Positions 5,637 to 21,284 of a DNA stretch of 64,000 bases are shown here, piece by piece. The position numbers and the translations under genes are program-made. How positions within the stretch are numbered: the stretch's first letter is position 1; each line of letters begins with the position of its first letter. A model generated the notes under the pieces. That model was not told where the DNA came from, made no database searches, and saw only the letters and a list, made by a program, of their open reading frames with translations. The stretch is from Candidatus Latescibacterota bacterium. Lineage in GTDB: Bacteria; Latescibacterota; UBA2968; GCA-2709665. The DNA is taken from contig OZ241917.1 of NCBI GenBank assembly GCA_965203805.1, positions 2,112,001 to 2,176,000 on the forward strand. Reading direction: 5' to 3'.

Positions 5637-6239
5637 CTAACGCAGATACCAGGCTTTGTTCTCCTCTTTCCAATCTTCGATTTTCTGCATTGCGGTACTG
5701 ACCGCGTCCTGCACCCCGCCCAACTTGCTTTCTCCGGCCTGGGCCTGGGCAAGGGCATCCTTGAACATGCCGTTTTCCAGGCTGCCCTTTGCGCCGTTCA
5801 ATGATGCTTCGGCCTCGCCAAGATCTGCGTCGAGCTGGTCCAGGTCTTCATCTGCGCCTTTGCCGCGGGGCGCGGCGTTAAGCGCTTCCCGGGCATCCGC
5901 CAGGCTGGAAGAGGCCGAATCGATGATCGCCTGAGCGTCGTCGCGGGTCTTCGCCTTGTTGGTTTCCGCCTGAGTCACGGACTGATTGGCGCGTTCCTCG
6001 GCCTCGATGGCAGCGGCTCTGGCCTCCTGATATTCACCCTGTTCAACTTTGTCTTTGGAGTCTTTCAGGGTATTCGTTGCCGAACGGAAAATCTCCTCGG
6101 CATAGACGTCGGCCTCGGCGGCCTTTGCTTTACTGAGGGCGCCTTCGGCGGCCTTGATTTCCTCCTCGGGAGGTTGTTCGCAGGCCACAAAGGCGGCGGC
6201 AACACAGACAACAAGGCCGATTCTCAGGACAGATCGCAT
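5637..6239 (-). CDS. DUF4398-like Ala-rich helical lipoprotein
   Basis: Lipobox FVAC, PPEEEIKAAEGALSKAKAAEADVYA, two helical repeats, and RBS aaggagg. Confidence 0.75.
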   Translation of the reverse strand: MRSVLRIGLVVCVAAAFVACEQPPEEEIKAAEGALSKAKAAEADVYAEEIFRSATNTLKDSKDKVEQGEYQEARAAAIEAEERANQSVTQAETNKAKTRDDAQAIIDSASSSLADAREALNAAPRGKGADEDLDQLDADLGEAEASLNGAKGSLENGMFKDALAQAQAGESKLGGVQDAVSTAMQKIEDWKEENKAWYLR

Positions 6240-6338
6240 CTCCCCTCCTTGGTTGATAAAGCCTCGAATGATGGCAACAAGTCTAACAGAAATAACTATT
6301 TCCGAAACAAATCACAGTGAATGCACTCATACAGGAAG

Positions 6339-6367
6339 AAGATACATCTAACGTATGACAAAGTCAA
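6339..6367 (-). promoter_or_regulatory. Sigma70-type promoter for the lipoprotein/L,D-transpeptidase operon
   Basis: TTGACT-N17-TATCTT on the minus strand. Confidence 0.55.
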
Positions 6368-6481
6368 GCGATTTCTCCAGAAATTTCGCGGCTGCATGCG
6401 CCGGATGGCTTCAACTCCCAACCGTCGAAAACAGCAGGAATTCCTCCCCCTTTCCGGCAGCGGCGCAACGGCCCTTTACGG

Positions 6482-6510
6482 TTGCGCGCATTCGGCGCAA
6501 GCGCTATATT
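6482..6510 (+). promoter_or_regulatory. Sigma70-type promoter upstream of the small membrane protein
   Basis: TTGCGC-N17-TATATT. Confidence 0.45.
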
Positions 6511-6699
6511 TCGCGCGCCGCAATTCACCGGTGCGCCCGGTCCGCAGTTCCGCTGATGATCCGCTTCCGACGTCGGCGGCCTAGCCCGGAAACCCGCCGG
6601 TTCCGCCAATCGTGAATTCACTGCCGGATGAATCATAAGGCCCCTGAAGACAAAAACACATCGGTATCCTGGTACTGGCAGAGTCAACAGGAGGAATCC

Positions 6700-6936
6700 A
6701 TGGGATTCGAGAACCAGCTGGGTGTGGCCGCGCTTTCTGTTCTGGGAGCGCTTCTGCTTCGATGGATTGGGGTTCCCAAACGCTGGACGCCGGTCTCGCC
6801 GTTGGTTCTGTCGACCCTTATCGTCGCGTTCTTCGGTGAGCTCGAGACGATTGGCGACGTGTTCGTGAGCGCGCTGGTCAGCGGGCTTTTCGCCAATGGA
6901 TTTTTATTCCTTCTTTTTGGCACCCGGAATGGATGA
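6700..6936 (+). CDS. Small 3-TM membrane protein, holin-like
   Basis: Strong RBS caggagg, 78 aa, three hydrophobic segments, and a GVPKRWTP...SGLFANG pattern. Confidence 0.6.
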   Translation: MGFENQLGVAALSVLGALLLRWIGVPKRWTPVSPLVLSTLIVAFFGELETIGDVFVSALVSGLFANGFLFLLFGTRNG

Positions 6937-8073
6937 TCTGATTCGAAGGCGATTCAGGTCGTCCAGAAGTTGTTTGGCGTCGAACACGACCGTGTTTTTT
7001 GAAATGCGTTTCTCCTTACGCACGTAGGTTTCCAGCGCTACCCGGGCGTTTTCATAACGACCGTCGCGAAAGCAGGCCAGTCCAAGGTAGTAGTAGCCGT
7101 CTGTCTGCAGGGAATCGATCCGGACCGCGTTCGCCAGGTGCGTGATGGCACTGTCGTAGTCGCGATGGTTGAAGTGCGACACCCCCAGTTTGAGATGGAC
7201 GGAGGCATCGTCGGCCCCGGCATCGATCGCTTTCCGGTAGGTGTTTACCGCCGCCTTGTAGTCTCCCCGATTAAATGCCAGATTGCCAAGGCTGACAAAC
7301 GCTTCGCCGTATTCCGGATCGATCTCCAGTGCCTTCAGGTAGGCGGTCCGCGCCTTCCCGAGTTTCCCTTCCTGAGCGTAGGCCATTCCAAGATTTCTAT
7401 AAATATAGCGGCGTTCCGTGGCGTCGTACTGGAACCGAAGCGCCTGTTCATAAATCTCAATGGCCTTGTCCGTCTTTCCCGTGTATATATAGGTAAGACC
7501 CAGGTTGAGGTACGCGTCCGTAAACTTGTCGTTAAGCTTGATTGCCCGCCGGTATTCCGCAATGGCCTGATCGGCGTATCCTTTGTGGTAATAGGCCAGA
7601 CCCATCAGATTTCGTACAAATGCCGACCCGGGTTTAAGTTCCAGGGCGGTCTTGTATTGCGCCAGAGCCGAGTCGTAATTCCCCTGGTGATAGTGTGTTC
7701 TGCCCAGGTCGACCCGCGCGTGAAAGATCCGCGGATTGACTCGAATTGACCGTTTCAGGTATTCAATCCGTTCATCCGGACGGGACAGCAGCCGACTGTA
7801 AAGGTAAAGGCCGACGGCCGACCCGGGTCTGGCCTGCAGGCGCCTCAGATATTCGGCAAGCGCCTCCCGCCGTCGGTTCGACTTGAGCATCAGGTCCTGG
7901 TAGTGCACATTCGCCTGGATGTCCTCGGGCCTCACCTTGACCAGGCGCCGAAAATGAGCCAGCTCGGCTTCGCTCCCCTCGCCTTCAGCGCCCTCGACCG
8001 GACATGCGAACCATCCGGTGCCAAGAAGCAAAAGTAAAATCAGGCTCGACAACACATGCTCTCCATGGGACAA
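6904..8073 (-). CDS. Secreted tetratricopeptide repeat protein
   Basis: Signal peptide and multiple TPR units (NLMGLAYYHKG, AYLNLGLTY, YRNLGMAY). Confidence 0.92.
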   Translation of the reverse strand: MSHGEHVLSSLILLLLLGTGWFACPVEGAEGEGSEAELAHFRRLVKVRPEDIQANVHYQDLMLKSNRRREALAEYLRRLQARPGSAVGLYLYSRLLSRPDERIEYLKRSIRVNPRIFHARVDLGRTHYHQGNYDSALAQYKTALELKPGSAFVRNLMGLAYYHKGYADQAIAEYRRAIKLNDKFTDAYLNLGLTYIYTGKTDKAIEIYEQALRFQYDATERRYIYRNLGMAYAQEGKLGKARTAYLKALEIDPEYGEAFVSLGNLAFNRGDYKAAVNTYRKAIDAGADDASVHLKLGVSHFNHRDYDSAITHLANAVRIDSLQTDGYYYLGLACFRDGRYENARVALETYVRKEKRISKNTVVFDAKQLLDDLNRLRIRSSIPGAKKKE

Positions 8074-8183
8074 TAGTCAACGTGCAGTCAATGGACCCGG
8101 CTACGAAAAGGGGTGATAGCATCGTCTCTATCGCCCCTTTATTGCTGCATATGGCTGCTGAGCCATAATTCCAGACAAATTGT

Positions 8184-8438
8184 CAATCTTGATTCGTCAT
8201 TTTTCGGGGACGTTAATTCGAAGTTACGCAAGTTGATAAAGGCGATTTGACATCGGATGTCCAGGAAACTTCAGGTCACTGGGCGTGAACGGAAAAATTG
8301 GCCTTCCCGGCGACCACTTCGGCCCGTTGAGGAAATAACTGCAGGGTCACGGCATTACGACACACGCCGTTTCGTACGGAGGCCTTTTGTGCTTTCTGTG
8401 GCCAGTTTTACGGTGATCTCTTTTCGAATTGACGTTGA
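8184..8438 (+). mobile_element. 255-bp dispersed repeat (MITE-like), copy A
   Basis: Ungapped ~81% match (hand count 47 mismatches in 254 nt) to the reverse complement of 47708-47962. Imperfect terminal inverted repeats tcaatcttgattcg / cgaattgacgttga. Confidence 0.75.
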
Positions 8439-8561
8439 CAACTGACAGCTTATGTCAAGTTCAGGCTGTCGGGGCAGTCGGATCGCCGGGGCCGCGCGAT
8501 CCCGGCTGAGGAAACCAGCACCGGCCGGCGCGGCGGAAGGGACGGGCGCGCCGACGTGAGA

Positions 8562-9422
8562 CTATCTGTCCTTCTTCAGGAGGATATTCAACGGTCGTTT
8601 GGGCTTGTAGAGGTAGATGACGTCGGCCGGGTCGAGCATGGTATTGAATATGGCGATTTCGTCGATCTTGCCGGAATAGGCGGTCTTGTAATTGTTGAAT
8701 CGAATGGCCATTTCGTCCAGGTTCCAGGAAATGTTCCGCTGGATATCCTTCTTGCGACCGATTTCTTCGCCGTCGACGAATAGTGCGTATTCGGCATCGG
8801 TCTTACCGCTGTTGATATTGGACCAAGTGACGACGATATGGTGCCACTGATCGGATTTCCAGTTCAGCCTCTCATACCGGATTGTCCACTGTTTAACCAT
8901 CTCCTCCCCGACGTTCTGCGTCTTGTCGGGGTAACAGCCGAATCGGAGGGCGCTGGGAGGACGATCCGTCCGGCTCTTGTCGAAGTCGACGAAGATGACC
9001 GCGTCGTCCCACTTTTTGCCGATGGAGAAGGGCTCGGGGAACTTTTCCTTGAAGTCGCTGTTGGGATCCACGCTCAACCAGAAAGAAACCCCGCCGGACC
9101 ATGGGCCGCCGGCCCGATACGGAAAGTTGTCCTTGGCCTGATAGCTGAGGTAGGTTGCGCCGTTTGCAAATGAAACGAACCCGTCCTCTTTGCCACCGGT
9201 AAACTCATGCCTCGGAGGGCTGCTCGTTTCCATTGCCGCGACTGTGCCCTTCTTTTTTGTCATCGCTTCGAAACGGGACCTGTCGTCGAAGTTGGCAAAA
9301 AAGAGAACATTCGCCGCGAGCTTTTCCTCGATTTTCTTTTCGGGACCACCGCAGGAAATAAAGCAGACAGCGACAACCGGAATTGTGAACAGGCGCAGGA
9401 GGCGGGGAGGGCACCGCAACAT
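8562..9422 (-). CDS. LamG/concanavalin-like jelly-roll lipoprotein
   Basis: Lipobox CFISC, VSFW, WHHIVVTW, LFVDG and YSGKIDEIAIFN motifs. Confidence 0.85.
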   Translation of the reverse strand: MLRCPPRLLRLFTIPVVAVCFISCGGPEKKIEEKLAANVLFFANFDDRSRFEAMTKKKGTVAAMETSSPPRHEFTGGKEDGFVSFANGATYLSYQAKDNFPYRAGGPWSGGVSFWLSVDPNSDFKEKFPEPFSIGKKWDDAVIFVDFDKSRTDRPPSALRFGCYPDKTQNVGEEMVKQWTIRYERLNWKSDQWHHIVVTWSNINSGKTDAEYALFVDGEEIGRKKDIQRNISWNLDEMAIRFNNYKTAYSGKIDEIAIFNTMLDPADVIYLYKPKRPLNILLKKDR

Positions 9423-9491
9423 AGGGCACTTCTCCTTTCGGGGGACGTACGTTCGATCAACCGGTTTTGCTTGCGGTTACAGCATTTCACC

Positions 9492-9636
9492 AATATAAAG
9501 AATGTGTGTTGGGGCGCAAGCGTTTTTCTTGTTTTCGCGCTGCGGAGGCGGCCGGCGGGCGCCGCGAAGGTCAGAAGAGTCAGATGATTAGTACAAAGGA
9601 AAATGCCTTGACAATAGTATTCTTATTTATTATATC
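9492..9636. promoter_or_regulatory. Divergent promoter region
   Basis: Minus strand: TTGCGC-N16-TATATT (9519-9492). Plus strand: TTGACA (9608)-N17-TATATC in an AT-rich patch. Confidence 0.45.
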
Positions 9637-9876
9637 CAAATTTTGCCGATTGCCGGGAGCGGCACGGATTTTGAACGAGGCCATCGGTGACCGGCGGGCG
9701 GGATCGGCGACCGTCCGCGGTGCTTTTCGTGCGGGTCCGACGCCGGCATCGGGCCGATGCTTCGGAATGCCGTCAGTACCGCGCCGGGACTGGTGTCGGA
9801 TCCTTTGCCTCGGTGCGCTGACAGGGTGGATCCGACCGGAACGAAACTTGCGTTACACAAGATTCAGGAGTTCACA

Positions 9877-12800
9877 ATGCTGCGCAAACTCGGCGGCGCG
9901 ATTCTGTGGTTGATCGCGATTTTTATGCTTTCGTCGGTTACCGTGTTCAATCCGGGACAGGTAACCGACTTTTTTATTCGTGTTTTCAATATCAAGCCGA
10001 GCGTTCCACAGGTGCGCGAGGAGAAGCCCTCCGAACGAGACGAACGCATCCAGGACTTCGCCGATCGGATCTCGGAGGCAAGTCTCCGGGAAACCGTTTC
10101 GGCTCTGGCCGGAATGGGGTCCCGCGTACCGGGGTATCCGGGGCACAGGAAGGCCTTTGATTACGTAAAAAACCGCTTCGAGACGCTGGGCCTGGAAGAT
10201 ATCACGGTCGAGGAACACCACGTTACGGTGCCCATTGACAAGGGAGCGACTCTGGAGGTTCCCGAATCGGGACTCAGGATCCGGCTGTACGGACTCTGGC
10301 CCAATCACGTACAAACGCCGTCTCTGCCGGAAGGCGGCGTTTCCGGCGCGCTGATCGACGCCGGGGACGGTTCTTTCAAAGCGCTGAATTCAAAGCCGGT
10401 GGAGAACAGCGTCGCGCTGATGCAATTCGATTGCGGCCAGAACTATCTCAACCCCCGCATGCTGGGCGCGCAGGCCGTCATCTTCTACGACAACGGCGGC
10501 GTAAGCAGAGGACAGGCCCTGGAAAAGATCCTGCAGGTACCGGTCGACGTGCCCAGGTTCTGGGTGGAGAAAGCCGACGCTGCCCGTCTGGCGGCACTCG
10601 CGCAATCCAATTCCACGCTCGTGCGGGTGACGTCCAGAATGGCGTGGGAAAAGGTCCCCACGTGGAATATCTACGCCACCCTGCCCGGCTCGGACGCCTT
10701 CGTCACGGAACGTGAAGAACGGAAGTGGAAGGACGAGATGGTTGTCCTGAGTTCATTTTACGACGCCGTCTCCGTCGTGCCCGCATTGGCGCCGGGCGCG
10801 GAGAACGCCACCGGGCTGGCTGCCCTGCTGGAAGTCGCGGCGGCGCTGAAAGACGAATCGTGGCTCGACGATTCCTCGCGTCTTGGACAACTGCCTCGAT
10901 ACACGGTAAAATTCCTGGTTACCGGCGCTCACTTCCAGGGGTTGGCCGGGGTCAATGACTTTCTGTTCAGGCATTCCAGGGAAAGCGACCACTTCCGGGA
11001 GAAGATTCCGGACGATCAGAAAATTGACTTCCGGCTCTTCGTGGGCTTCGACCTGTCGAGCGAGACGGACCAGATCGCCAGCTTCTCTCACGGAACGTTC
11101 ATCAACCCGAACTGGTCAACCAACAACTACGAAAACAACCTGCTTGCGCCCTACGCGAAGAAGTTCAACAAATACCTGGCCAAGGTCTATCCTGGCGAAA
11201 CGCGTCACGTCGACGCCGTCGCGCCGCCGAAACGAACCTGGAAGAACTACATGCCCGTCCGGCTGGGATTTGACAGCGAGGCGGTCAAATTCGTCGGCAA
11301 GGAAGGCATTACCCTTGCCAGCCCGTCCACAACGCGCGAAAAGGTGGACACGCCCGTCGACCGGGTGGAATTCGTCAACTTCACCAACCTGACCCTGCAA
11401 ACCCGCACGGCGACCGGCATGCTGCTGAAAGCCCTGGAGGATCCTGAATTCTTCCGGGTATCCAAACTCAAACTTCAGGATCTCGGACACAGTATGAAGG
11501 GGCGCATCCTCTGGTTCGAACGGGATGCCGATTTTGCGATTCCACGCGTGCCCGTACCGGGGGCTATCGTCACGTATCAGCAACCCGGGCCGGTTGCCAG
11601 CTGCGGCGGTGTACGCACCCTGATTGTGGATAAGACCACGGAGGGTCCGAGATACGTGAGCGATCGCGCCCAGGGACCCATGGTCGGCACGAAAGAGGAA
11701 GTGGAAGCCACCGGCCGATTCCAGTTCAACATCATGCGCAACCGGTTTACGAACCAGATATTGGCGTATGAAATCGACGATGACGGCAGAATCATATCGG
11801 CGCCGGACCTCGGCACGGAAGGAGAGGAGAAGTTCCCCACGCGGCAGGGTTACGGCTGGTGGGAGAACGAGATGCTGGCGGTCCTTTTCAAGTGCCGTTC
11901 TCTGAGCGTGTTCGAAATCATCGATTCCAGTTATCTTTCGGCGCTCGATTTCATGACGGTGCTGAACCCTGGCGACTCCCAGCCGATGGAATACGGGTAC
12001 TATTATATTGAAAATCAGAGCATCAAGGAAGGCGACGTCACGCGGGCGGCGGTCGCGTTTACCGCGATGAACCCTACAACCGGCAGTCCCGATCCCATCA
12101 AGATTCTGATGAGCACGGGGCTTTTCGGTGTGAAATACCTGCTGACAAACGCCCCTGAATCGCTGCTGGAAGCGCCGGTGGACAAGTGGGACGTTGACGA
12201 CGAACTGCTGGAGTTGTCCCGCGGCGCCGGATATCCTCCCGGCGTAATCCTCCATCCTTCGTACAAGGCTGCCAAGGATATGTGGGTCGTCGACGATATC
12301 CGGATGAAACAGCTTGCGCAGTACGGCATTACAAACGCCCGTCTGGAAAAGCTGCACACCCATGCGGCCGACGCGCTGAAGCGGGCGCGTGAGCATCTTG
12401 CCAACCAAGACTACGAAGGGTTTATCGCCGCGTCCAGAGAGGCGTGGGGTCTGGAAGCACGCGGATATCCTGAGGTCATGTCCACGGCAAACGACACCGT
12501 CCGCGGCATTATCTTCTATTTCATCCTCCTGCTGCCATTTTCCTTTTTCTGCGAGCGGCTGCTGTTCGGATTTCCGGATATCACCCGGCGTCTGGTCGGT
12601 TTCGCGGGAATCTTCGTGCTGTTTTTCATCATCCTTCGATACGTCCATCCGGCATTCAAGCTGAGCAGCACGCCCTACATCATTTTTCTCGCATTTGTGA
12701 TCATGGCGTTGGGCGGCATTGCGATGTTCATTGTCGTTTCCAAGTTCGGCGAAGAGGTCCGGAAGATGAAACAGGCCTCGGCGGGAACCTACGAGGCCGA

Positions 12801-14673
12801 CGTGGGCCGGTTGAGCGCGACCGCCGCTTCCATCATTCTGGGCATCTCCAATCTGCGAAAACGTCCTCTCCGTACCGGACTGACCGCCATCACCCTCACG
12901 CTGCTTACGTTTACGGCATTATCGTTCACGTCGGTACAGACGTCCATAAAATTCTACCGGTTGCCGAGGGACAACCAGCCGCCGTACCAGGGAGGCCTGG
13001 TGCGGGACCGTTCCTGGCGGGGCTTGCAGGAATCGGTGCTCCAGTACCTGACCAGCGCGTTCAAAGGCCGGGCGACCATTGTTCCCCGCGCGTGGTACCT
13101 TTCTCAGGTACGGGGCGAACGGGCGTACGTCAATTTCTCCCGCATCACCGAGCAGACCTCGTACCTCGGCTCCAGGGACACCTATGTCGACTTCGACGTG
13201 GGCATCACCACCGGAAAAGACAGCTTTGTGAACGGATTACTGGGGCTCACCGCGGAAGAACCGGAAATTACCGGGGTCGACCGGTACCTGATGAGCGGGC
13301 GATGGTTCGATCCCGGAGAAACAGATGTGTGCATTCTGCCGAACGACTTGGCGGAGCTTGTGGGCATTTTTCCGGAAGACGCCGGTACCGCGCAGATCGA
13401 GATGCTGGGCGGGGTCTTCACCGTCATTGGAATTGTGGACTCCGAAGGATTCAACAAATACAAGGATATGGACGACGAGAAGCTGACGCCGGTGGATACC
13501 GTAAAGGAAAAGGACGACCTGGCGGACGCCCAGGACCAGGACCCGCGGGTTGTCGCGGCGGCTCCAATCGAGACGTTTACGCATCTGGAATCGACCAACG
13601 TGATGATATTGCCGTATGATTACGTGCGGAATATCGGAGGCACTCTCAACTCCGTCGCTCTGGCGAACTTCGTGGACTCCCAGGGCAACGCCAGGGCGAA
13701 CTTCCTGCCCGACGTCGAAGAATTCATGACCCGCGTATCCCTGACCATGTTCGTGGGCCATGAGAACAAGGTCACCGTATACAGTTCCATCGGCTCCACG
13801 TCTCTTTCCGGACTGGGCACGCTTTTCATTCCGATTCTGATCGCGGCGCTGATCGTGCTGAATACCATGATGGGCGCCGTGTACGAACGCTTCAACGAAA
13901 TTGGCATTTATTCGGCGGTTGGCCTGGCGCCCAACCACATCGCGGCGCTGTTCCTGGCCGAGGCGACGGTATTCGCCACGGTGGGCGCCGTCTTCGGATA
14001 CCTGATCGGACAGGTGCTGGTCCTTGTGTTGTTTACCCAGGCGCAGGCCCAGGGACAGCTGCTCAGCCTGGAGTTGAATTATTCTTCGTTGTCGGCCATT
14101 TCCTCGACACTGATCGTAATGGCGACGGTTTTCCTCTCAACGCTGTACCCGGCGAAGAAGGCCGCCGATATGGCCGTGCCGGATGTGACGCGGAAGTGGG
14201 AGTTTCCGGAGCCCGAAGGCGACAGATGGGTGTTCGACTTTCCATTTACGGTTGGCGGCTCGGAAGTACTGGGTATGTACACGTATCTGACGCGTGTTTT
14301 CGAGTCGTACGGCGAGGGTTCCGTCGGCGACTTCGTGGCCGATTACGTCCGGTTTACGTCCCGTGACATGCAGGGCGAACCGCAATACGAAATCAACCTC
14401 ACGTGCTGGCTTGCGCCTTACGATCTGGGCATCAGCCAGGAGGTGGTGCTGCTGGCCATACCAACGAGGGAATACAACATCTACAAGATCGAGGTGGTTA
14501 TCAACCGGCTCAGCGGTGACGTGGCGTCCTGGAAGCGCATCAACCGGGGGTTCCTGAACGTGCTCCGCAAAAGGTTCCTGGTCTGGCGTACCATTCCACC
14601 CGAGCTGAAACACCAGTACGCCGACGAAGGCAAACGCATGCTTTCAGACCCCGTGGAAGAGGCCGCAGTATAG
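9877..14673 (+). CDS. Giant membrane protein: M28-peptidase-like ectodomain fused to FtsX/MacB-type ABC permease
   Basis: RBS caggag before ATG 9877. M28-fold motifs SRVPGYPG and YDAVS..APGAENATGLAALLE. Permease motifs ISNLRKRPLRTGLT, VYERFNEIGIYSAVG and LYPAKKAA. Confidence 0.85.
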   Translation: MLRKLGGAILWLIAIFMLSSVTVFNPGQVTDFFIRVFNIKPSVPQVREEKPSERDERIQDFADRISEASLRETVSALAGMGSRVPGYPGHRKAFDYVKNRFETLGLEDITVEEHHVTVPIDKGATLEVPESGLRIRLYGLWPNHVQTPSLPEGGVSGALIDAGDGSFKALNSKPVENSVALMQFDCGQNYLNPRMLGAQAVIFYDNGGVSRGQALEKILQVPVDVPRFWVEKADAARLAALAQSNSTLVRVTSRMAWEKVPTWNIYATLPGSDAFVTEREERKWKDEMVVLSSFYDAVSVVPALAPGAENATGLAALLEVAAALKDESWLDDSSRLGQLPRYTVKFLVTGAHFQGLAGVNDFLFRHSRESDHFREKIPDDQKIDFRLFVGFDLSSETDQIASFSHGTFINPNWSTNNYENNLLAPYAKKFNKYLAKVYPGETRHVDAVAPPKRTWKNYMPVRLGFDSEAVKFVGKEGITLASPSTTREKVDTPVDRVEFVNFTNLTLQTRTATGMLLKALEDPEFFRVSKLKLQDLGHSMKGRILWFERDADFAIPRVPVPGAIVTYQQPGPVASCGGVRTLIVDKTTEGPRYVSDRAQGPMVGTKEEVEATGRFQFNIMRNRFTNQILAYEIDDDGRIISAPDLGTEGEEKFPTRQGYGWWENEMLAVLFKCRSLSVFEIIDSSYLSALDFMTVLNPGDSQPMEYGYYYIENQSIKEGDVTRAAVAFTAMNPTTGSPDPIKILMSTGLFGVKYLLTNAPESLLEAPVDKWDVDDELLELSRGAGYPPGVILHPSYKAAKDMWVVDDIRMKQLAQYGITNARLEKLHTHAADALKRAREHLANQDYEGFIAASREAWGLEARGYPEVMSTANDTVRGIIFYFILLLPFSFFCERLLFGFPDITRRLVGFAGIFVLFFIILRYVHPAFKLSSTPYIIFLAFVIMALGGIAMFIVVSKFGEEVRKMKQASAGTYEADVGRLSATAASIILGISNLRKRPLRTGLTAITLTLLTFTALSFTSVQTSIKFYRLPRDNQPPYQGGLVRDRSWRGLQESVLQYLTSAFKGRATIVPRAWYLSQVRGERAYVNFSRITEQTSYLGSRDTYVDFDVGITTGKDSFVNGLLGLTAEEPEITGVDRYLMSGRWFDPGETDVCILPNDLAELVGIFPEDAGTAQIEMLGGVFTVIGIVDSEGFNKYKDMDDEKLTPVDTVKEKDDLADAQDQDPRVVAAAPIETFTHLESTNVMILPYDYVRNIGGTLNSVALANFVDSQGNARANFLPDVEEFMTRVSLTMFVGHENKVTVYSSIGSTSLSGLGTLFIPILIAALIVLNTMMGAVYERFNEIGIYSAVGLAPNHIAALFLAEATVFATVGAVFGYLIGQVLVLVLFTQAQAQGQLLSLELNYSSLSAISSTLIVMATVFLSTLYPAKKAADMAVPDVTRKWEFPEPEGDRWVFDFPFTVGGSEVLGMYTYLTRVFESYGEGSVGDFVADYVRFTSRDMQGEPQYEINLTCWLAPYDLGISQEVVLLAIPTREYNIYKIEVVINRLSGDVASWKRINRGFLNVLRKRFLVWRTIPPELKHQYADEGKRMLSDPVEEAAV

Positions 14674-14771
14674 CAACCCGTTGACAGGTAACGTGTATAT
14701 CAGTCACCCGGCAGGTTGACACGGGCAATCTGTTTCCGGGAAAGAACCCTCGCTGCTCCCAATGAGGAGGG

Positions 14772-16826
14772 GTGGTTTTGGCAATCGATCCCAAGGATCC
14801 CAGAGAAGAGCAGGAACAGTACGAACATATCATGCCGGCGGACGCGCCGTTTGAAGATGGCTTCAATATGAAGACCCTGTGGGCGACGCTGTTCGTGGGG
14901 CTGGTGATGCTGCCCGGCGCGATCTACCTCGGGTTGGTTACCGGACAGAATATGGCCGGCGCATCCGAATGGGTGACCATCATCCTCTTCCTGGAGATCG
15001 CAAAGCGGTCCTTTGTGCGGCTGAAAACACAGGAGGTTCTGGTCATCTACTGGGTCGCCGGCGGGCTGCTTGGCGTGGGTGTGCGGCTGGGCAGTGCGGC
15101 GCTGGTGTACGGCGGTCCCTTCGGCGGATTGATCTGGGACCAATACCTGATCCAATCTCCGGCGGCGAGAGGGCTCGCGGATTATATCCCGGACTGGGTG
15201 GTTCCCCGGATCAGCGAACATCCGGAAATCTACGCGGAACGGACGTTCCTTCACGCCGCGTGGCTGAAGCCCATTGGCATCCTTGTCGCGTTGACGCTCT
15301 TAAGCAATACCGCAAGACTGTCGCTTGGGTACGTGATGTTTCGTATTACGAGCGACATCGAACGGTTGCCGTTTCCGCTGGCGCCGGTACAAGCCCGCGG
15401 GGCCACGGCGCTTGCCGAGACATCGGCCAAGCAGGAGGGCTGGAGATGGCGGGTATTCAGTACCGGCGCGTGCATCGGACTGGTCTGGGGCCTGCTCTAC
15501 GTTGTCGTCCCAACGCTTTCCAGCATCTTCCTGACCGATACGGTCCAGATTCTGCCCATTCCCTGGATCGATTTTACGGAACAGATCAAAACCATCCTGC
15601 CTGCCGCGCTGTTTGGAATTGCAACCGACCTGGGACACCTGATTGTCGGATTCGTGCTGCCGTTCTGGGTGGTTATCGGGTCGTTTGCCGGCGCCGTCCT
15701 GGGCAACCTGGTTGTCAATCCGTTTCTCTACAAATACGAAATCCTGGACCGCTGGTCTGCCGGGATGACGGCAATCCCGACGTCGATCTCCAACCAGTTC
15801 GACTTCTGGCTGAGTTTCGGAATCGGCACGTCGTTCGTCATCGCGTTCACGGGATTTTACCAGGTGTTTCGGGTGCTTGCGGAACAACGCCGTCAGAAAC
15901 GGGAAACCGGACATCATACAACCGGCATCGACCTCGAAGACCTGCCGGAGGGCCGCTCGGATATGAAGATGATCTACCCGATTCTGGCCTGGGGCGCCGC
16001 CACGCTGGGCTTCATTGTGATGTGCCAGATGCTGGTTCCGGAATTCCACTGGGGCTGGGTTGTGTTCTTCGGACTCATCTACACGCCGATATCTTCTTAT
16101 ATCGGCGCACGAATGATCGGCCTGACCGGAAGTCCGTACGGGGCGAGTATTCCCTACTTGCGGGAGGCGGGGATTCTTCTGTCCGGGTACAAGGGCGTCG
16201 CGGTCTGGTTCGCGCCCCTTCCCCTGCACGACCACGGCCTTGCGGTCCCGACATACAAACAGATGGAGTTGACCAAAACGAAATTCGTCAGTTACGTGAA
16301 ATTGACCGCGGTAACCATGGTCGTGATCTTTATTTTCAGCTTCATCTTCTGGGAATTCATCTGGCGACTGGGGCCCATTCCCTCGTCAAGCTATTACTAT
16401 GTGCAGACCTTCTGGCCATACGACGCCACCATGACCACGATGTGGCTGAAGTCGACCATGCCGGACCTCGAAGGTCAGGGAACCGTTGGCGTCGAGCTCC
16501 TTAAAGACATCATCAAGCCGGAAATCATCGGCGCGGGATTCGCCGTCGGCGGCCTCATGTATCTGATCCTGGCCGCGTTGAAAGCGCCGACGCTGTTCTT
16601 TTTCGGATTTGTGGGCTCGCTTGCCACCTGGCCGCATTTCGTCATCTTGCAGTTCGCCGGCGCGCTCCTCGGGCGTTACTACTTCTCCAGACGGTTCGGC
16701 GAATCCAAATGGAGGGCCTACGCGCCGATTCTGCTGGCCGGTTATTACTGCGGCATGGGGCTCATCGGGATGACGTCGGTTTCGGTCGTGCTGATTTCAA
16801 AGGCCGTTTCCCAGGTCGTCTTCTAG
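14772..16826 (+). CDS. OPT-superfamily-like multi-pass peptide transporter
   Basis: RBS gaggagg, 684 aa almost entirely TM helices, and EDGFN..T and DIERLPFP motifs reminiscent of OPT/YSL proteins. Confidence 0.7.
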   Translation: MVLAIDPKDPREEQEQYEHIMPADAPFEDGFNMKTLWATLFVGLVMLPGAIYLGLVTGQNMAGASEWVTIILFLEIAKRSFVRLKTQEVLVIYWVAGGLLGVGVRLGSAALVYGGPFGGLIWDQYLIQSPAARGLADYIPDWVVPRISEHPEIYAERTFLHAAWLKPIGILVALTLLSNTARLSLGYVMFRITSDIERLPFPLAPVQARGATALAETSAKQEGWRWRVFSTGACIGLVWGLLYVVVPTLSSIFLTDTVQILPIPWIDFTEQIKTILPAALFGIATDLGHLIVGFVLPFWVVIGSFAGAVLGNLVVNPFLYKYEILDRWSAGMTAIPTSISNQFDFWLSFGIGTSFVIAFTGFYQVFRVLAEQRRQKRETGHHTTGIDLEDLPEGRSDMKMIYPILAWGAATLGFIVMCQMLVPEFHWGWVVFFGLIYTPISSYIGARMIGLTGSPYGASIPYLREAGILLSGYKGVAVWFAPLPLHDHGLAVPTYKQMELTKTKFVSYVKLTAVTMVVIFIFSFIFWEFIWRLGPIPSSSYYYVQTFWPYDATMTTMWLKSTMPDLEGQGTVGVELLKDIIKPEIIGAGFAVGGLMYLILAALKAPTLFFFGFVGSLATWPHFVILQFAGALLGRYYFSRRFGESKWRAYAPILLAGYYCGMGLIGMTSVSVVLISKAVSQVVF

Positions 16827-16944
16827 CTGAATTCGACAATGGAACGCCGCCCGGATTCGGACTGTCTAAGGAAATTAAGAAGAGGGCGAATCCGGGCGGA
16901 ATCACGTCCGGCCGACACGGAACTCCAATCACGGGGAGGCTTCG

Positions 16945-17415
16945 ATGAGAATCGGTAATGGGATCGCGGGAATGACGCTCATTGCCTGTTTGGTATTGGC
17001 GTTTGCCGTGGAGGCGACGGCGCAGCCCGACAGACGAGGCGGTCGTGGACGCGGAGGGCGCGGCGGCGCAAGGCTACGAATGATGCTGCCCCTCGAACAG
17101 ACGCTGGGTTTCCTGGCCTTCGACAAAGGGCTCGCATTAAAGGACAATCAGCTGATCAAGATCCGCAGTGAACTCAAGGATATCCACGAAAAGCGCGCCG
17201 AACTGGAAAAGGAAATGCGGAGCGGCGCCGACAGGCAGCAACTGATGCAGAAGCTCGGTGGGATTCGGGGCGCCATGTTTGAAAAGATAAAGGCCGTTCT
17301 GGACGATCGGCAGGACAAGATTCTTGACCGCTACCTGGAGAGACTGCGGCGGGGGCTTCAACGTGGACGCGGGGGCGGACGGCGGGGAGGCGGCCCTCCC
17401 GGCGGCGGCGTTTGA
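16945..17415 (+). CDS. Secreted helical protein with RGG-rich termini (Spy/CpxP-like core)
   Basis: RBS gggagg, signal peptide ending ATA, RRGGRGRGGRGG and RGRGGGRRGGG tails, and an LDDRQ motif. Confidence 0.7.
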   Translation: MRIGNGIAGMTLIACLVLAFAVEATAQPDRRGGRGRGGRGGARLRMMLPLEQTLGFLAFDKGLALKDNQLIKIRSELKDIHEKRAELEKEMRSGADRQQLMQKLGGIRGAMFEKIKAVLDDRQDKILDRYLERLRRGLQRGRGGGRRGGGPPGGGV

Positions 17416-17444
17416 CGCGATCATTCCCCGCCAGGATCGATCAC

Positions 17445-17475
17445 ATGGCGGCCCCCGGCGGGGTCGCCATTTTTT
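17445..17475 (+). terminator. Intrinsic terminator
   Basis: ATGGCGGCCCC/GGGGTCGCCAT stem followed by a T-run. Confidence 0.75.
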
Positions 17476-17612
17476 GACAGATTGCAGGATCCATTCATGC
17501 GCGGCCGTTCTGATTCAAGAGACGGTCGGAATACGCCGTTGCCGCCAATTGTGCCCCGGACGATTACTCACGAACCATCTCAAGTAGTTGCGGCCTCGAG
17601 GAGAGCATTCAG

Positions 17613-18998
17613 ATGAATCTCCAGGCGGTCGGGGAACGGCTCGACAAACCGTTCACGTTTGCCGTTGTGGGCGACACTCATTTTCTGCATCCGAAGTTCG
17701 GCCGGCAGGCCGAAGGGTCCGGCGTTTCGTTTCGCCCGTTGCAGGTTGACCAGTATCTCGAAAGCGTCCAATACGTCCTGATGCCGATGATGGCTTCTCT
17801 GAAGGAAGCGTCTCCGGCCTTTCTTGTGATCACCGGGGATGTGGTGGAGGGACATCAGGACGTCGAACTCTCCATCGACGAGATTAAGGAAGGGCTGGAA
17901 TTCTTCGAGGGATACGGGATTCCGCTTCTGTTCGCGTGCGGAAACAGAGACCGCGTCGAGGCATTCGACGGCGTTGTTCGACCGTATCTTGGCCGCTGGC
18001 TGGGCAGCACGCCCCACGAGCGGTTTTTCTATATGGATATTGCCGGTTGCCGGCTGATATTCCTCGACACGCCCGCCTGGACGCGGAACGGCAAACAGCG
18101 AAAGTGGCTGGAAAGCACGTTAGGTTCGCGGGAGGATGCGGGAATCGACCGGACGTTTCTGTTCGGACACCATCCGGTCTGGCCGATGGCAAGGGCCTTT
18201 TTCACCAGTCTCGACCTCCATCTCGATATGCCGGAAATATTGCGCGAGCATCCCGTAGACGCCTTTTTCTGCGGGCATACTCACAACCAGAGCGTGTTGC
18301 TTCACCGTACGGATGGGCGACCCGTTTTGCAATGCATGTGCGCTTCCATCGGCCTTTCCAGTGAGATGCCGACGCCGCTGGATCGTGTGCAGAACCTGCT
18401 GCCCCATCCCCGGGACGTGCTTGGCTGTTGGCCGGGGTATCTCGAGAATACGGCGCCTGGATGGTTTATTGTCCGCGTCCGCGAAACATCCGTCGAAGCC
18501 GAATGGCATCACCTGAACCGGGGAGTTGAAACCCGACTCGCCTGGCATCGACCCGGGGATCTTTCGACATTCGAGAAAATGGAACACCCACCCGATGCGC
18601 GTCTGATTTACGATGACCTGAACCATATCCGGCGCGTTTCCCTGCGATTCTGCGGATGGCATGCCTTGCGCGAGGACAAGCAGGTTTTCCTCAATGGCGA
18701 ACCGATCGGCCGCCTGCCTCCCGCAAACGACTATGCGCCGATCCGGATGGAGTTGCCGGCCGGATGTATTGAACATCTTCGCATGGAGAATCGGATCGAG
18801 ATCCAGGTTGCCCGGAGCGATGCAAGTACTCTAGGGAATTTCGCGCTCGAAGCGGTCCTGCCCGGTGGACGATTCGTGAGAACCCGGCCCATCGGTGAAA
18901 TATTCACCTGGTCCGACCGGTGGGGCGCGTGGAACTCGAACTGGCTGCAGAAAATGAAACCCGGACGGACGGCCACGACACTGCTGTGCTTTCAGTGA
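17613..18998 (+). CDS. Calcineurin-like metallophosphoesterase with C-terminal beta domain
   Basis: GDTH, ITGD, GNRD, GHHP and GHTH motifs. Confidence 0.85.
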   Translation: MNLQAVGERLDKPFTFAVVGDTHFLHPKFGRQAEGSGVSFRPLQVDQYLESVQYVLMPMMASLKEASPAFLVITGDVVEGHQDVELSIDEIKEGLEFFEGYGIPLLFACGNRDRVEAFDGVVRPYLGRWLGSTPHERFFYMDIAGCRLIFLDTPAWTRNGKQRKWLESTLGSREDAGIDRTFLFGHHPVWPMARAFFTSLDLHLDMPEILREHPVDAFFCGHTHNQSVLLHRTDGRPVLQCMCASIGLSSEMPTPLDRVQNLLPHPRDVLGCWPGYLENTAPGWFIVRVRETSVEAEWHHLNRGVETRLAWHRPGDLSTFEKMEHPPDARLIYDDLNHIRRVSLRFCGWHALREDKQVFLNGEPIGRLPPANDYAPIRMELPAGCIEHLRMENRIEIQVARSDASTLGNFALEAVLPGGRFVRTRPIGEIFTWSDRWGAWNSNWLQKMKPGRTATTLLCFQ

Positions 18999-19205
18999 AT
19001 CCGCTTGGATCCCGCCTGCGCCGGAAACTGAAGCGTCGAACGACAGCCTCAGCCTACGGCGGAATCGAACCTCCGCCGTCAGTAGCCGTAACAATCGCCC
19101 GCTGAGACCCACACAGCCGCTGCGGACACAGCCTGTGCCGATTCCCGGTCAGTCTCACCCGGGCATGCACTCGGCGCCCTCAATACCAGGACATCGGAAG
19201 TTGCC

Positions 19206-21284
<2,079 letters not shown>

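Follow-up and report, generated by a model that had tools for sequence, protein, structure and literature searches.

A bacterial fusion of an M28-like ectodomain with a type VII ABC permease, and its OPT-like neighbor: a conserved gene pair of the Latescibacterota with a possible role in uptake

ATP-binding cassette (ABC) systems of the MacB fold are known to expel, to extract or to signal, and the proteins of the OPT family are stand-alone proton symporters that act as importers and have mostly been studied in fungi and plants. Here, we analyze a locus in which genes of these two kinds stand side by side. It lies in a 64,000-nucleotide (nt) stretch of DNA from Candidatus Latescibacterota bacterium (assembly GCA_965203805.1, contig OZ241917.1, genome positions 2112001-2176000), which we call the window, in a genome that forms a single contig of 5.87 Mb; coordinates given below without further label are positions in this window. 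Gene 1 (9877-14673, + strand) encodes a PA/M28-like ectodomain fused to a type VII ABC permease, gene 2 (14778-16826, +) a polytopic protein that is a divergent member of the OPT / DUF6785-DUF6784 superfamily, and gene 3 (16945-17415, +) a small, clade-specific protein. Text searches of the literature, with subscription journals outside their coverage, turned up no description of a MacB/FtsX-OPT pairing or of an M28-FtsX fusion, in agreement with the initial annotation of this DNA, which knew of no characterized complex that combines the two; with the same coverage, they found no mention of "DUF6785" or "DUF6784." The evidence presented below gives good support to a conserved membrane system made up of two parts, genes 1 and 2. 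That they constitute the core of a conserved, multi-copy inner-membrane module, in which ATP-driven capture or extraction would feed an OPT-like importer with gene 3 as an accessory, is the reading that we favor, at a little under an even chance.

The product of gene 1, 1598 amino acids (aa) from the ATG at 9877 or 1638 aa from the frame start at 9757 (from which its residues are numbered here), carries a type VII ABC permease, that is, one of the MacB/LolC/FtsX fold; the FtsX domain, the plan of the transmembrane (TM) helices, the periplasmic fold and the coupling helix are all present. The permease module (12814-14160, +; residues ~1020-1468) consists of an amphipathic N-helix, TM1, a periplasmic domain of ~290 aa, TM2, the coupling helix, and TM3-4; hydropathy places TM1 at residues 1042-1060 and TM2-4 at 1357-1463, and the FtsX model of Pfam (PF02687) matches residues 1357-1471 with 53.5 bits against a cut-off of 25.5 (E 3e-14). 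Compared with the Protein Data Bank (PDB) by sequence, the permease matched chains of YtrF, MacB, LolC, LolF, and FtsX. An AlphaFold2 (AF2) model of residues 900-1638, built on a 21-sequence alignment, had a pLDDT of 69.7 overall and of 80-93 in the periplasmic domain; with this model Foldseek retrieved MacB (5lil, E 1.3e-11), then LolCDE, YtrEF, HrtBA, YbbAP, BceAB, and FtsEX, and VIA-align ranked YtrF (Z 17.0) and MacB (Z 16.5). The periplasmic domains also superimposed in VIA-align, on that of MacB (3ftj, Z 12.5, 180 aa, rmsd 3.8) as well as on those of YknZ (5f9q, Z 11.0) and LolC (5naa, Z 11.0). The coupling helix between TM2 and TM3 is the docking site of the ATPase, the nucleotide-binding domain (NBD) of such systems, and in gene 1 its motif E-R-x-x-E-I-G aligns to the same stretch in YtrF and MacB; it is invariant among 21 relatives, down to 45% identity (alignment positions E478, R479, E482, and I483).

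In front of this module, gene 1 is a type II membrane protein. A hydropathy scan reveals an N-terminal signal-anchor helix (9889-9942, +; residues ~45-62, in a hydrophobic segment that spans ~40-62) followed by an ectodomain of ~850 aa on the outside. The first part of the ectodomain (10054-11313, +; residues 100-519) is PA- and M28-like by Pfam and profile matches, M28 being matched at residues 322-470 (28.8 bits, cut-off 21.3) and PA at 197-278 (E 0.0026, below cut-off). A profile made from 18 homologs matched the PA-containing M28 aminopeptidases 2ek8 (E 6.7e-14) and YwaD, and also AAP; the same profile matched Nicalin (E 2.7e-5) and transferrin receptor 1 (E 8e-5), both of which are catalytically inactive. 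The residues that bind metal and catalyze hydrolysis in M28 enzymes are known, and in an alignment to 2ek8 and YwaD the canonical set of zinc ligands and catalytic Glu (the H-x-D, D, and E-E motifs) was incomplete in gene 1, with the Glu-Glu pair and one of the His ligands missing. With 2ek8 as reference, "HHDS" has become "YYDA," "NDDASG" has become "ENAxG," and "AEENGL" has become "AHF(Q/E)GL," replacements which are kept across the 18 relatives with the Tyr, Glu, and His invariant (alignment positions Y236, E250, and H293). On what is generally known of M28 active sites, at least two metal ligands would be lost through these replacements, together with the catalytic Glu. The M28-like domain announced by the initial annotation is thus there, over the Pfam cut-off, with its canonical catalytic residues replaced; because of this replacement, the ectodomain is more likely to be a binding or receptor domain than a peptidase. 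Its second half (11314-12471, +; residues 520-905) belongs to no family that could be recognized, with no Pfam match at E<=5.

Between the ectodomain and the permease module, three extra TM helices are apparent from hydropathy (12496-12735, +; residues 914-993). Their mean identity among 20 non-redundant relatives is 0.74, compared with 0.56-0.59 in the outer domains, and the cytoplasmic C-terminal tail (14161-14670, +; residues 1469-1638, 169 aa) reaches the same 0.74, equal to that of the membrane core. The tail has no Pfam match. Its AF2 model, with a pLDDT of ~70-90, describes an alpha+beta domain of the order beta-alpha-beta4-alpha2, whose VIA-align matches (BamC-N, KA1, Aha1, START-like; Z 7.2-8.5) are marginal and in a range which the tool rates as common; judging from this model, the tail is not an ATPase or nucleotide-binding domain. 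Pfam, hydropathy, and fold matches together bear out the architecture originally read from the sequence (anchor, ectodomain, three TM helices, MacB/FtsX module, and tail). The names given to gene 1 in the databases are "M28 family peptidase," "FtsX-like permease family protein," or "hypothetical protein," and relatives of ~2770 aa exist that contain a Big_5 domain (PF13205).

Gene 2, which codes for 682 aa from TTG 14778 or 684 aa from GTG 14772, is a polytopic protein of ~680 aa by hydropathy. It has more than 2218 close relatives, some of them called "peptide transporter" by their sources, and a precomputed PF03169 (OPT) label is attached to 8 of 120 listed relatives; six close homologs that we scanned had no Pfam OPT match, although four of them bear this label. 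More distant sequences provide the connection. A HMMER search with the gene 2 family profile gathered 1051 representatives, and 9 of the 22 that were scanned match Pfam OPT, eight of them above cut-off with up to 64 bits and some spanning nearly the whole model. In hhalign, an alignment of 82 gene 2 sequences was paired nearly end to end with an alignment of nine bona fide OPT proteins of the phylum (probability 97.3%, E 2.5e-11, 520 columns) and also with DUF6785/DUF6784 (probability 98.8%, E 1.1e-16, 544 columns). Shallow alignments gave weaker values (gene 2 with OPT 32%, DUF6785 with OPT 2%, gene 2 with DUF6785 96%). A language-model atlas agrees with a relationship to OPT and DUF6785/6784. 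Clusters of gene-2-like proteins have also been reported from Lentisphaerota, Armatimonadota, and Verrucomicrobiota. By the families' own thresholds gene 2 is outside both of them; to judge from the profiles, it is a full-length remote homolog of OPT on a divergent branch that links OPT to DUF6785/6784, a relationship that we consider settled because the intermediates and the two profile comparisons, with OPT and with DUF6785/DUF6784, all point to it. The OPT-like character first proposed for gene 2 therefore holds, as a remote one seen through intermediates and profiles only, and the domain mapping that had been recommended for both proteins came out unequally: M28, PA, and FtsX could be placed on gene 1 by Pfam, gene 2 only by profile-profile comparison. 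The 82-sequence gene 2 profile found no PDB chain at E<=1; the true OPT proteins of the phylum match 7wsr, an iron-phytosiderophore transporter, at E 9.5e-24. Of 121 genomes sampled from the phylum, only 19 have such true OPT genes, as against 106 of 121 for gene 2, and in the genome studied here the best match to Pfam OPT has an E of 0.016 and falls on a DUF6785 gene. Two variants of the family were also encountered: gene-2-like sequence within open frames of 1482-1483 aa (G114:C168:3786-5705 and G118:C1:964380-966299), and longer relatives (806-1083 aa), among them the second copy in this genome, into which a large segment is inserted near residue 562.

The association of the two genes was followed in two sets of loci, one anchored on gene 2 (the best 80 of 550 stretches in contigs of one genome per species) and the other on gene 1 (the best 80 of 522 metagenome loci). 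Relatives of gene 1 are present in 68 of the 80 gene-2-anchored loci, always on the same strand: directly upstream in 33, upstream at a distance in 16, directly downstream in 1, and downstream at 0.3-8 kb in 18. An upstream gene 1 with a DUF6785 gene in between is one arrangement seen. Seven of the 12 loci without gene 1 have less than 2.5 kb on one flank; at two others (L055 and L058) gene 1 was not found with at least 7.5 kb on both flanks. In the gene-1-anchored set, gene 2 and/or DUF6785 accompany gene 1 in 70 of 80 loci (gene 2 in 54, DUF6785 in 46), and an OPT-like gene lies within 400 nt of gene 1 in 57 of the 76 loci with a long gene 1. Across 121 Latescibacterota genomes, both genes occur in 106 and neither in 14; gene 1 is alone in a single bin that is 67% complete, and no genome has gene 2 by itself. 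There are 1-10 gene 1 matches and 1-7 gene 2 matches per genome. All but one of the 14 genomes without either gene belong to one family, f10 (0/13; 64-97% complete; e.g. G036, G045, and G062), and the 13 other sampled families all have both. Homologs of the two genes thus cluster and co-occur widely, which is one of the points on which the initial annotation had staked its proposal. The pair has also been duplicated, or was kept, as a unit, because in six genomes that have two loci apiece the division into two types is the same for both proteins: gene 1 is 86-90% identical within a locus type and 52% between types, and gene 2 is 92-93% identical within and 71% between.

One might still suppose that there is no functional coupling and that the two genes are neighbors kept by descent, each acting alone. 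Most loci come from one phylum, so that shared ancestry inflates the counts; a few loci lack the partner; and DUF6785 genes often stand alone, no gene 1 adjoining 19 of the 23 copies in this genome. Mere neighborhood is argued against because the linkage outlasts repeated rearrangement, the genes being still together after their order was reshuffled among the upstream, interrupted, and downstream (0-8 kb) arrangements. Gene 1 is without gene 2 only in the incomplete bin, the pairs have been co-duplicated, and all four gene 1 paralogs of this genome (which has two of gene 2 and 23 DUF6785 genes) abut a DUF6785 or a gene 2 gene. We regard independent action of the two as very improbable.

DUF6785/DUF6784 belongs to the system as its third family in many lineages, where it replaces gene 2, or stands beside it, next to relatives of gene 1. 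None was found in 14 well-known control genomes, compared with the 23 genes here. Most copies lie in catabolic clusters with GFO/IDH/MocA oxidoreductases, PhyH dioxygenases, heparinase II/III-like proteins, and carrageenase-like proteins (propellers), and further neighbors of the stand-alone genes are amidohydrolases, enolase-superfamily enzymes, UxuA, and a sulfatase. From this setting, DUF6785/DUF6784 would seem to be one of the major importer families of the phylum, as yet uncharacterized. One of the gene 1 paralogs is itself flanked by heparinase-like and carrageenase-like proteins. The genomic context looks like nutrient acquisition of a substrate class that it does not narrow, and the paralogs point as much to glycan catabolism as to peptides or glycopeptides.

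A permease of this type calls for an ATPase, which the initial annotation had expected to be encoded in trans. A tblastn search with the genome's own LolD-type ATPase identified 23 ABC ATPase genes at E<=1e-20. A concrete candidate for the partner (genome positions 5853573-5854358) heads a paralogous locus at 5.84-5.85 Mb (L094, G000:C1:5840001-5858000), where genes for a 262-aa ATPase, a DUF6785 protein, gene 1', gene 2', a bacterial microcompartment (BMC) shell protein, and a DHDPS-family enzyme follow on one strand. The best NCBIfam matches of the 262-aa protein are LolD, DarD, FtsE, MacB, YbbA, and DevA, a class that serves FtsX-type permeases, and there is no other permease beside it. Orthologs are found in 30 of 31 relatives at 79-99% identity; within the genus, the gene adjoins the DUF6785 gene of the paralogous cluster in every genome (15 of 15). 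Among seven further genomes two show the same cluster, and in one a transposase and a distance of 5 kb separate the ATPase gene from gene 1'-gene 2'. The 262-aa LolD-type protein fits, without being proven to be, a dedicated ATPase able to act in trans; that it also serves the gene 1 copy of the window is what we infer, so that the expectation of an ATPase in trans has gained a candidate whose link to the locus first described is an indirect one. Directly behind the gene 2' cluster, the shell protein is a four-BMC-domain protein of 603 aa (L094 1928-3739, -) and is followed by the DHDPS-family enzyme (719-1888, -).

A second ATPase came into consideration. In 5 of the 80 metagenome loci (L157, L158, L193, L208, and L220) gene 2 is followed, at 1-3 kb, by an ortholog (71-77% identity) of an FtsE-like ATPase of this genome, an observation that we treat as a lead only. 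In this genome the FtsE-like ATPase (genome positions 2417102-2417887) has a 234-aa FtsX-like protein as its own partner, with an S41 peptidase next to it, and as a partner of gene 1 the ATPases of the five loci were weakened as candidates, being orthologs of one that has its own small FtsX and that is probably part of an FtsEX. The locus concerned (L234, G000:C1:2411001-2425000; 6096-9410, -) has the order S41 C-terminal processing peptidase, 234-aa FtsX-like protein, LolD/FtsE-type ATPase, with the permease before the ATPase; the pair is probably an FtsEX of unusual form.

From these elements the following mechanism may be proposed. The separately encoded LolD-type ATPase would hydrolyze ATP at the gene 1 permease and thereby move its periplasmic parts; the PA/M28-like ectodomain, its peptidase residues lost, would bind substrate as a receptor; and gene 2, or elsewhere a DUF6785/DUF6784 paralog, would act as a secondary carrier of the OPT superfamily and bring into the cell what had been captured or extracted. 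In this manner ATP-driven capture and hand-over could be coupled to a proton-driven importer for an organic oligomer, which might be a peptide, a glycopeptide, or an oligosaccharide. Physical contact between the partners, the direction of transport, and the substrate are all things that we infer. A stronger version, which we consider doubtful, would join a gene 1 dimer, the LolD-type ATPase, and one or more OPT-like carriers in one supercomplex, a hybrid primary/secondary transporter whose ectodomain captures a polymer-derived substrate and loads or gates the proton-driven importer. A complex prediction that combined gene 2 (82-sequence alignment) with residues 900-1074 of gene 1, i.e. the three extra TM helices and TM1 of the FtsX module, scored 0.06 against a mark of 0.32; run without controls, it speaks neither for nor against binding.

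Several observations weigh against the proposal of a coupled uptake module. The co-occurrence of genes 1 and 2 amounts, in effect, to about one joint absence, that in f10, related genomes not being independent. At three gene-2-anchored loci (L042, L054, and L063) gene 1 was not found despite 10 kb on both flanks, and among the 10 metagenome loci without a partner, two (L176 and L219) show no OPT-like gene although each flank extends for 3.5 kb or more. The window contains no ABC ATPase gene, as the initial annotation had noted; none of the 23 that tblastn found is within it, and none is fused to gene 1. Nor was there any at E<=1e-10 within 10 kb to either side in the 80 gene-2-anchored genome loci, and any ABC ATPase at all occurs in just 10 of the 80 metagenome loci, five of these being the orthologs of the different, FtsE-like ATPase. 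In four of the seven further genomes mentioned above the candidate ATPase stands alone beside unrelated genes, far from any gene 1, and the genome contains 47 FtsX domain matches, among them many orphan FtsX-type permeases that are equally possible clients. Gene 2 itself has no Pfam match at E<=10, neither to OPT (PF03169) nor to PF20581/PF20580, and no NCBIfam match, and its AF2 model from a 16-sequence alignment was unusable (pLDDT 42.5). The RNA-library contigs described below prove neither transcription nor a single transcript. Finally, a context with ExbB/ExbD, a TPR protein, and a PpiD-like protein, found in distant clades, would also fit an envelope function.

This last context is that of the distant clades L032-L064 and L062-L079 (for example L043, 103-9968), which keep gene 2, DUF6785, and gene 1 beside another conserved set: an 815-aa protein without a family, a TPR protein of ~1090 aa, ExbB, two ExbD, a 255-aa protein without a family, and a PpiD/SurA-like peptidyl-prolyl isomerase (PPIase) of ~600 aa. 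In one locus type the 255-aa protein is directly upstream of gene 1 and was tried as the ATPase; it has no Pfam or NCBIfam match and was dropped. Placed after ExbB-ExbD-ExbD, it might, as a guess, have a TonB/TolA-like role. The downstream neighbors in the window, a metallophosphoesterase and a DUF255-type gene, are syntenic in the window's clade only. Gene 3, which the initial annotation had counted as part of the system, does not hold that place: tblastn found it in 26 of the 80 gene-2-anchored loci, all of them close relatives. Its product of 156 aa begins like a signal peptide, is rich in RG at both ends, and carries LxxxQ motifs in a helical central part; in a cluster of 23 members all have at least six RG dipeptides and 22 have at least two LxxxQ motifs. 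In Pfam, the LTXXQ-type models were unmatched and the sole match was to Metal_resist (E 1.7), and the language-model atlas put the protein, at 0.88, with a cluster of the LTXXQ family, a placement that serves as no more than a lead. Gene 3 is not a core component but a lineage-specific, probably periplasmic accessory, possibly CpxP/Spy-like in kind.

With these neighbors in mind, genes 1 and 2 could be viewed as an envelope-maintenance machine, in which an FtsEX-like gene 1 controls remodeling of the cell wall or envelope through its M28-like domain and the OPT-like partner recycles (muro)peptides. FtsEX structures are indeed among the fold matches of gene 1 (8tzj, Z 16.1; 8hd0, Z 14.0), and the ExbB, double ExbD, long TPR, and PpiD/SurA-like cluster of the distant clades would suit such a role, as would the FtsEX-like pair downstream of gene 2 in the five metagenome loci and a gene 3 that is perhaps a CpxP/Spy-like envelope-stress protein. 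Housekeeping machines are usually single-copy, however, whereas these genes are present in up to 10 and 7 matches per genome and as ancient paralogous pairs, several of the paralogs being situated among glycan-catabolic genes. The 815-aa, 255-aa, and PPIase partners of the distant cluster have no homolog in this genome at E<=1e-8, family f10 does without both genes in genomes up to 97% complete, and the canonical catalytic residues are missing from the very domain that would have to act on the wall. We therefore consider the envelope role unlikely, although it stands first among the rivals, ahead of export or extraction and then of the absence of coupling.

The remaining rival, export or extraction, follows from the company that the permease keeps. 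The characterized MacB-fold systems expel or extract their substrates and do not import them, and the entries matched by gene 1 include MacAB-TolC, LolCDE with lipoprotein, the heme exporter HrtBA, and YbbAP; gene 1 might likewise expel or extract a peptide, a lipoprotein, or a lipid-linked molecule, taken from the periplasm or the inner membrane, with the OPT-like protein as an exporter or flippase, and the marginal resemblance of the tail to lipid- or ligand-binding helix-grip and KA1-like folds (Z 7-8.5) would be in keeping with this. In the 80 + 80 loci, however, no gene for a membrane-fusion adaptor or an outer-membrane duct is conserved beside the pair; the characterized OPT members are importers; and the DUF6785 paralogs are in catabolic, not biosynthetic, clusters. 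We judge export improbable and retain uptake, by ATP-driven capture feeding an OPT-like importer, as the preferred reading.

At the level of the DNA the three genes form a co-oriented unit. Open reading frame (ORF) calling gave three frames on the + strand, 9757-14673, 14772-16826, and 16945-17415, with gaps of ~100 nt between genes 1 and 2 and of 118 nt between genes 2 and 3. For gene 1, the most likely start codon is ATG 9877, because CAGGAG lies 8 nt upstream, homologs align from residue ~36-42, and the database form has 1598 aa; for gene 2, TTG 14778 is the most likely start and is preferred because the closest relatives have 682 aa and GTG 14772 is only 1 nt past GAGGAGG. An intrinsic terminator closes the unit (17445-17476, +), with a stem at 17445-17470 of 11 pairs, 8 of them G-C, followed by TTTTTT; it ranks best of 14 terminator-like sites in a scan of the region, in which shuffles give 8.2 +/- 2.8. 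The three co-oriented genes with a single terminator are hence as originally described. For the upstream promoter that had been proposed with them, a sigma-70-like sequence can be seen by eye at 9608-9636 (+), consisting of TTGACA (9608-9613), a 17-nt spacer, and TATATC; a consensus promoter scan lists no site upstream of gene 1, and the sequence is a candidate only. A leader of ~240 nt would separate it from gene 1, to 9876. Between genes 2 and 3, an inverted repeat was noticed by eye (16848-16898, +), with 12-nt arms CGCCCGGATTCG / CGAATCCGGGCG, a 27-nt loop, and no T run; it is not among the sites listed by the terminator scan and might act as a partial attenuator or serve in the processing or stability of the RNA. 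A search of 9300-17700 with Rfam gave no family at E<=1. Farther downstream, a 654-aa antisense ORF at 19155-21119 (-), without a Pfam match, lies opposite the DUF255/thioredoxin-like gene at 19206-21284 (+) and is most likely a shadow ORF of this GC-rich gene.

Contigs from RNA libraries (four marine libraries from one study) derive from a relative of ~95-97% identity and cover all three genes, with 26-30 of 30 bins per run. The junction of genes 1 and 2 is bridged by contigs in three of the four runs, and in two runs (X1 and X3) contigs start at 9654/9655, shortly after the promoter candidate, and so hint weakly at a 5' end there; the contig-free parts of some runs (e.g. X2, 9600-10127) are uninformative. 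In the same relative small insertions occur at 16826-16877, just upstream of the inverted repeat. As a separate observation, in three of the runs 19 nt of the gene 1 leader (9787-9807) are replaced by 75 other letters, so that this long, GC-rich leader is variable between close relatives.

If the proposed coupling were true, it would give type VII ABC transporters a new working mode, provide a functional handle both on bacterial OPT relatives and on DUF6785/DUF6784, and help to explain how an uncultured, polymer-degrading phylum imports breakdown products across its inner membrane. In a genomic survey of the Latescibacteria, M28 is counted with the nutritional peptidases, and the transporters mentioned are of the ABC, symport, and PTS kinds; the system of genes 1 and 2 is not named in the passages of that survey consulted here (PMC4454575). 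Were the supercomplex also true, it would represent the first coupling of a type VII ABC system with a secondary carrier and a main oligomer-uptake route of the Latescibacterota, and DUF6785/DUF6784 would gain a first function. Our analysis provides testable partners for such studies, namely the candidate ATPase and the cognate paralogous pairs.

Comparison with known systems shows what the parts of the locus share with them and where they differ. With transferrin receptor 1 and Nicalin, gene 1 shares an N-terminal anchor followed by a protease-like domain that has an inserted PA domain and has lost its catalytic residues; it differs in being bacterial, in being fused to an ABC-type permease, and in an ectodomain whose second half matches nothing known. 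With the OPT/YSL proteins (PF03169), gene 2 shares full-length profile homology, a length of ~680 aa, and a polytopic build, and its intermediates fall in Pfam OPT, whereas gene 2 itself lacks a Pfam OPT or PDB match; the sole solved OPT relative found was 7wsr. The uncharacterized DUF6785/DUF6784 proteins (PF20581/PF20580) are homologous to gene 2 over the full length and take a similar genomic position by gene 1, but they are far more numerous and mostly stand alone in catabolic clusters. BceAB-BceS, represented among our fold matches by 8g3a ("BceAB-S"), is a precedent for a type VII ABC permease in a stable complex with another polytopic membrane protein; its partner is a sensor kinase that serves signaling, whereas the partner of gene 1 in a putative complex would be of the carrier type. 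Finally, with the type VII ABC systems at large (MacB, LolCDE, FtsEX, YtrEF, HrtBA, YbbAP, and BceAB), gene 1 has in common the four-helix FtsX-type TM module, the coupling helix, and a large MacB-like periplasmic domain that follows TM1 and precedes TM2, and a LolD/MacB-type ATPase would be expected as its partner; to these it adds, in the same chain, an anchor, the ~850-aa PA/M28-like ectodomain, and three TM helices in front and a conserved cytoplasmic domain of ~150 aa behind, and unlike them most gene 1 loci have neither an adjacent ATPase nor adaptor or duct genes, their constant neighbor being an OPT-like carrier.

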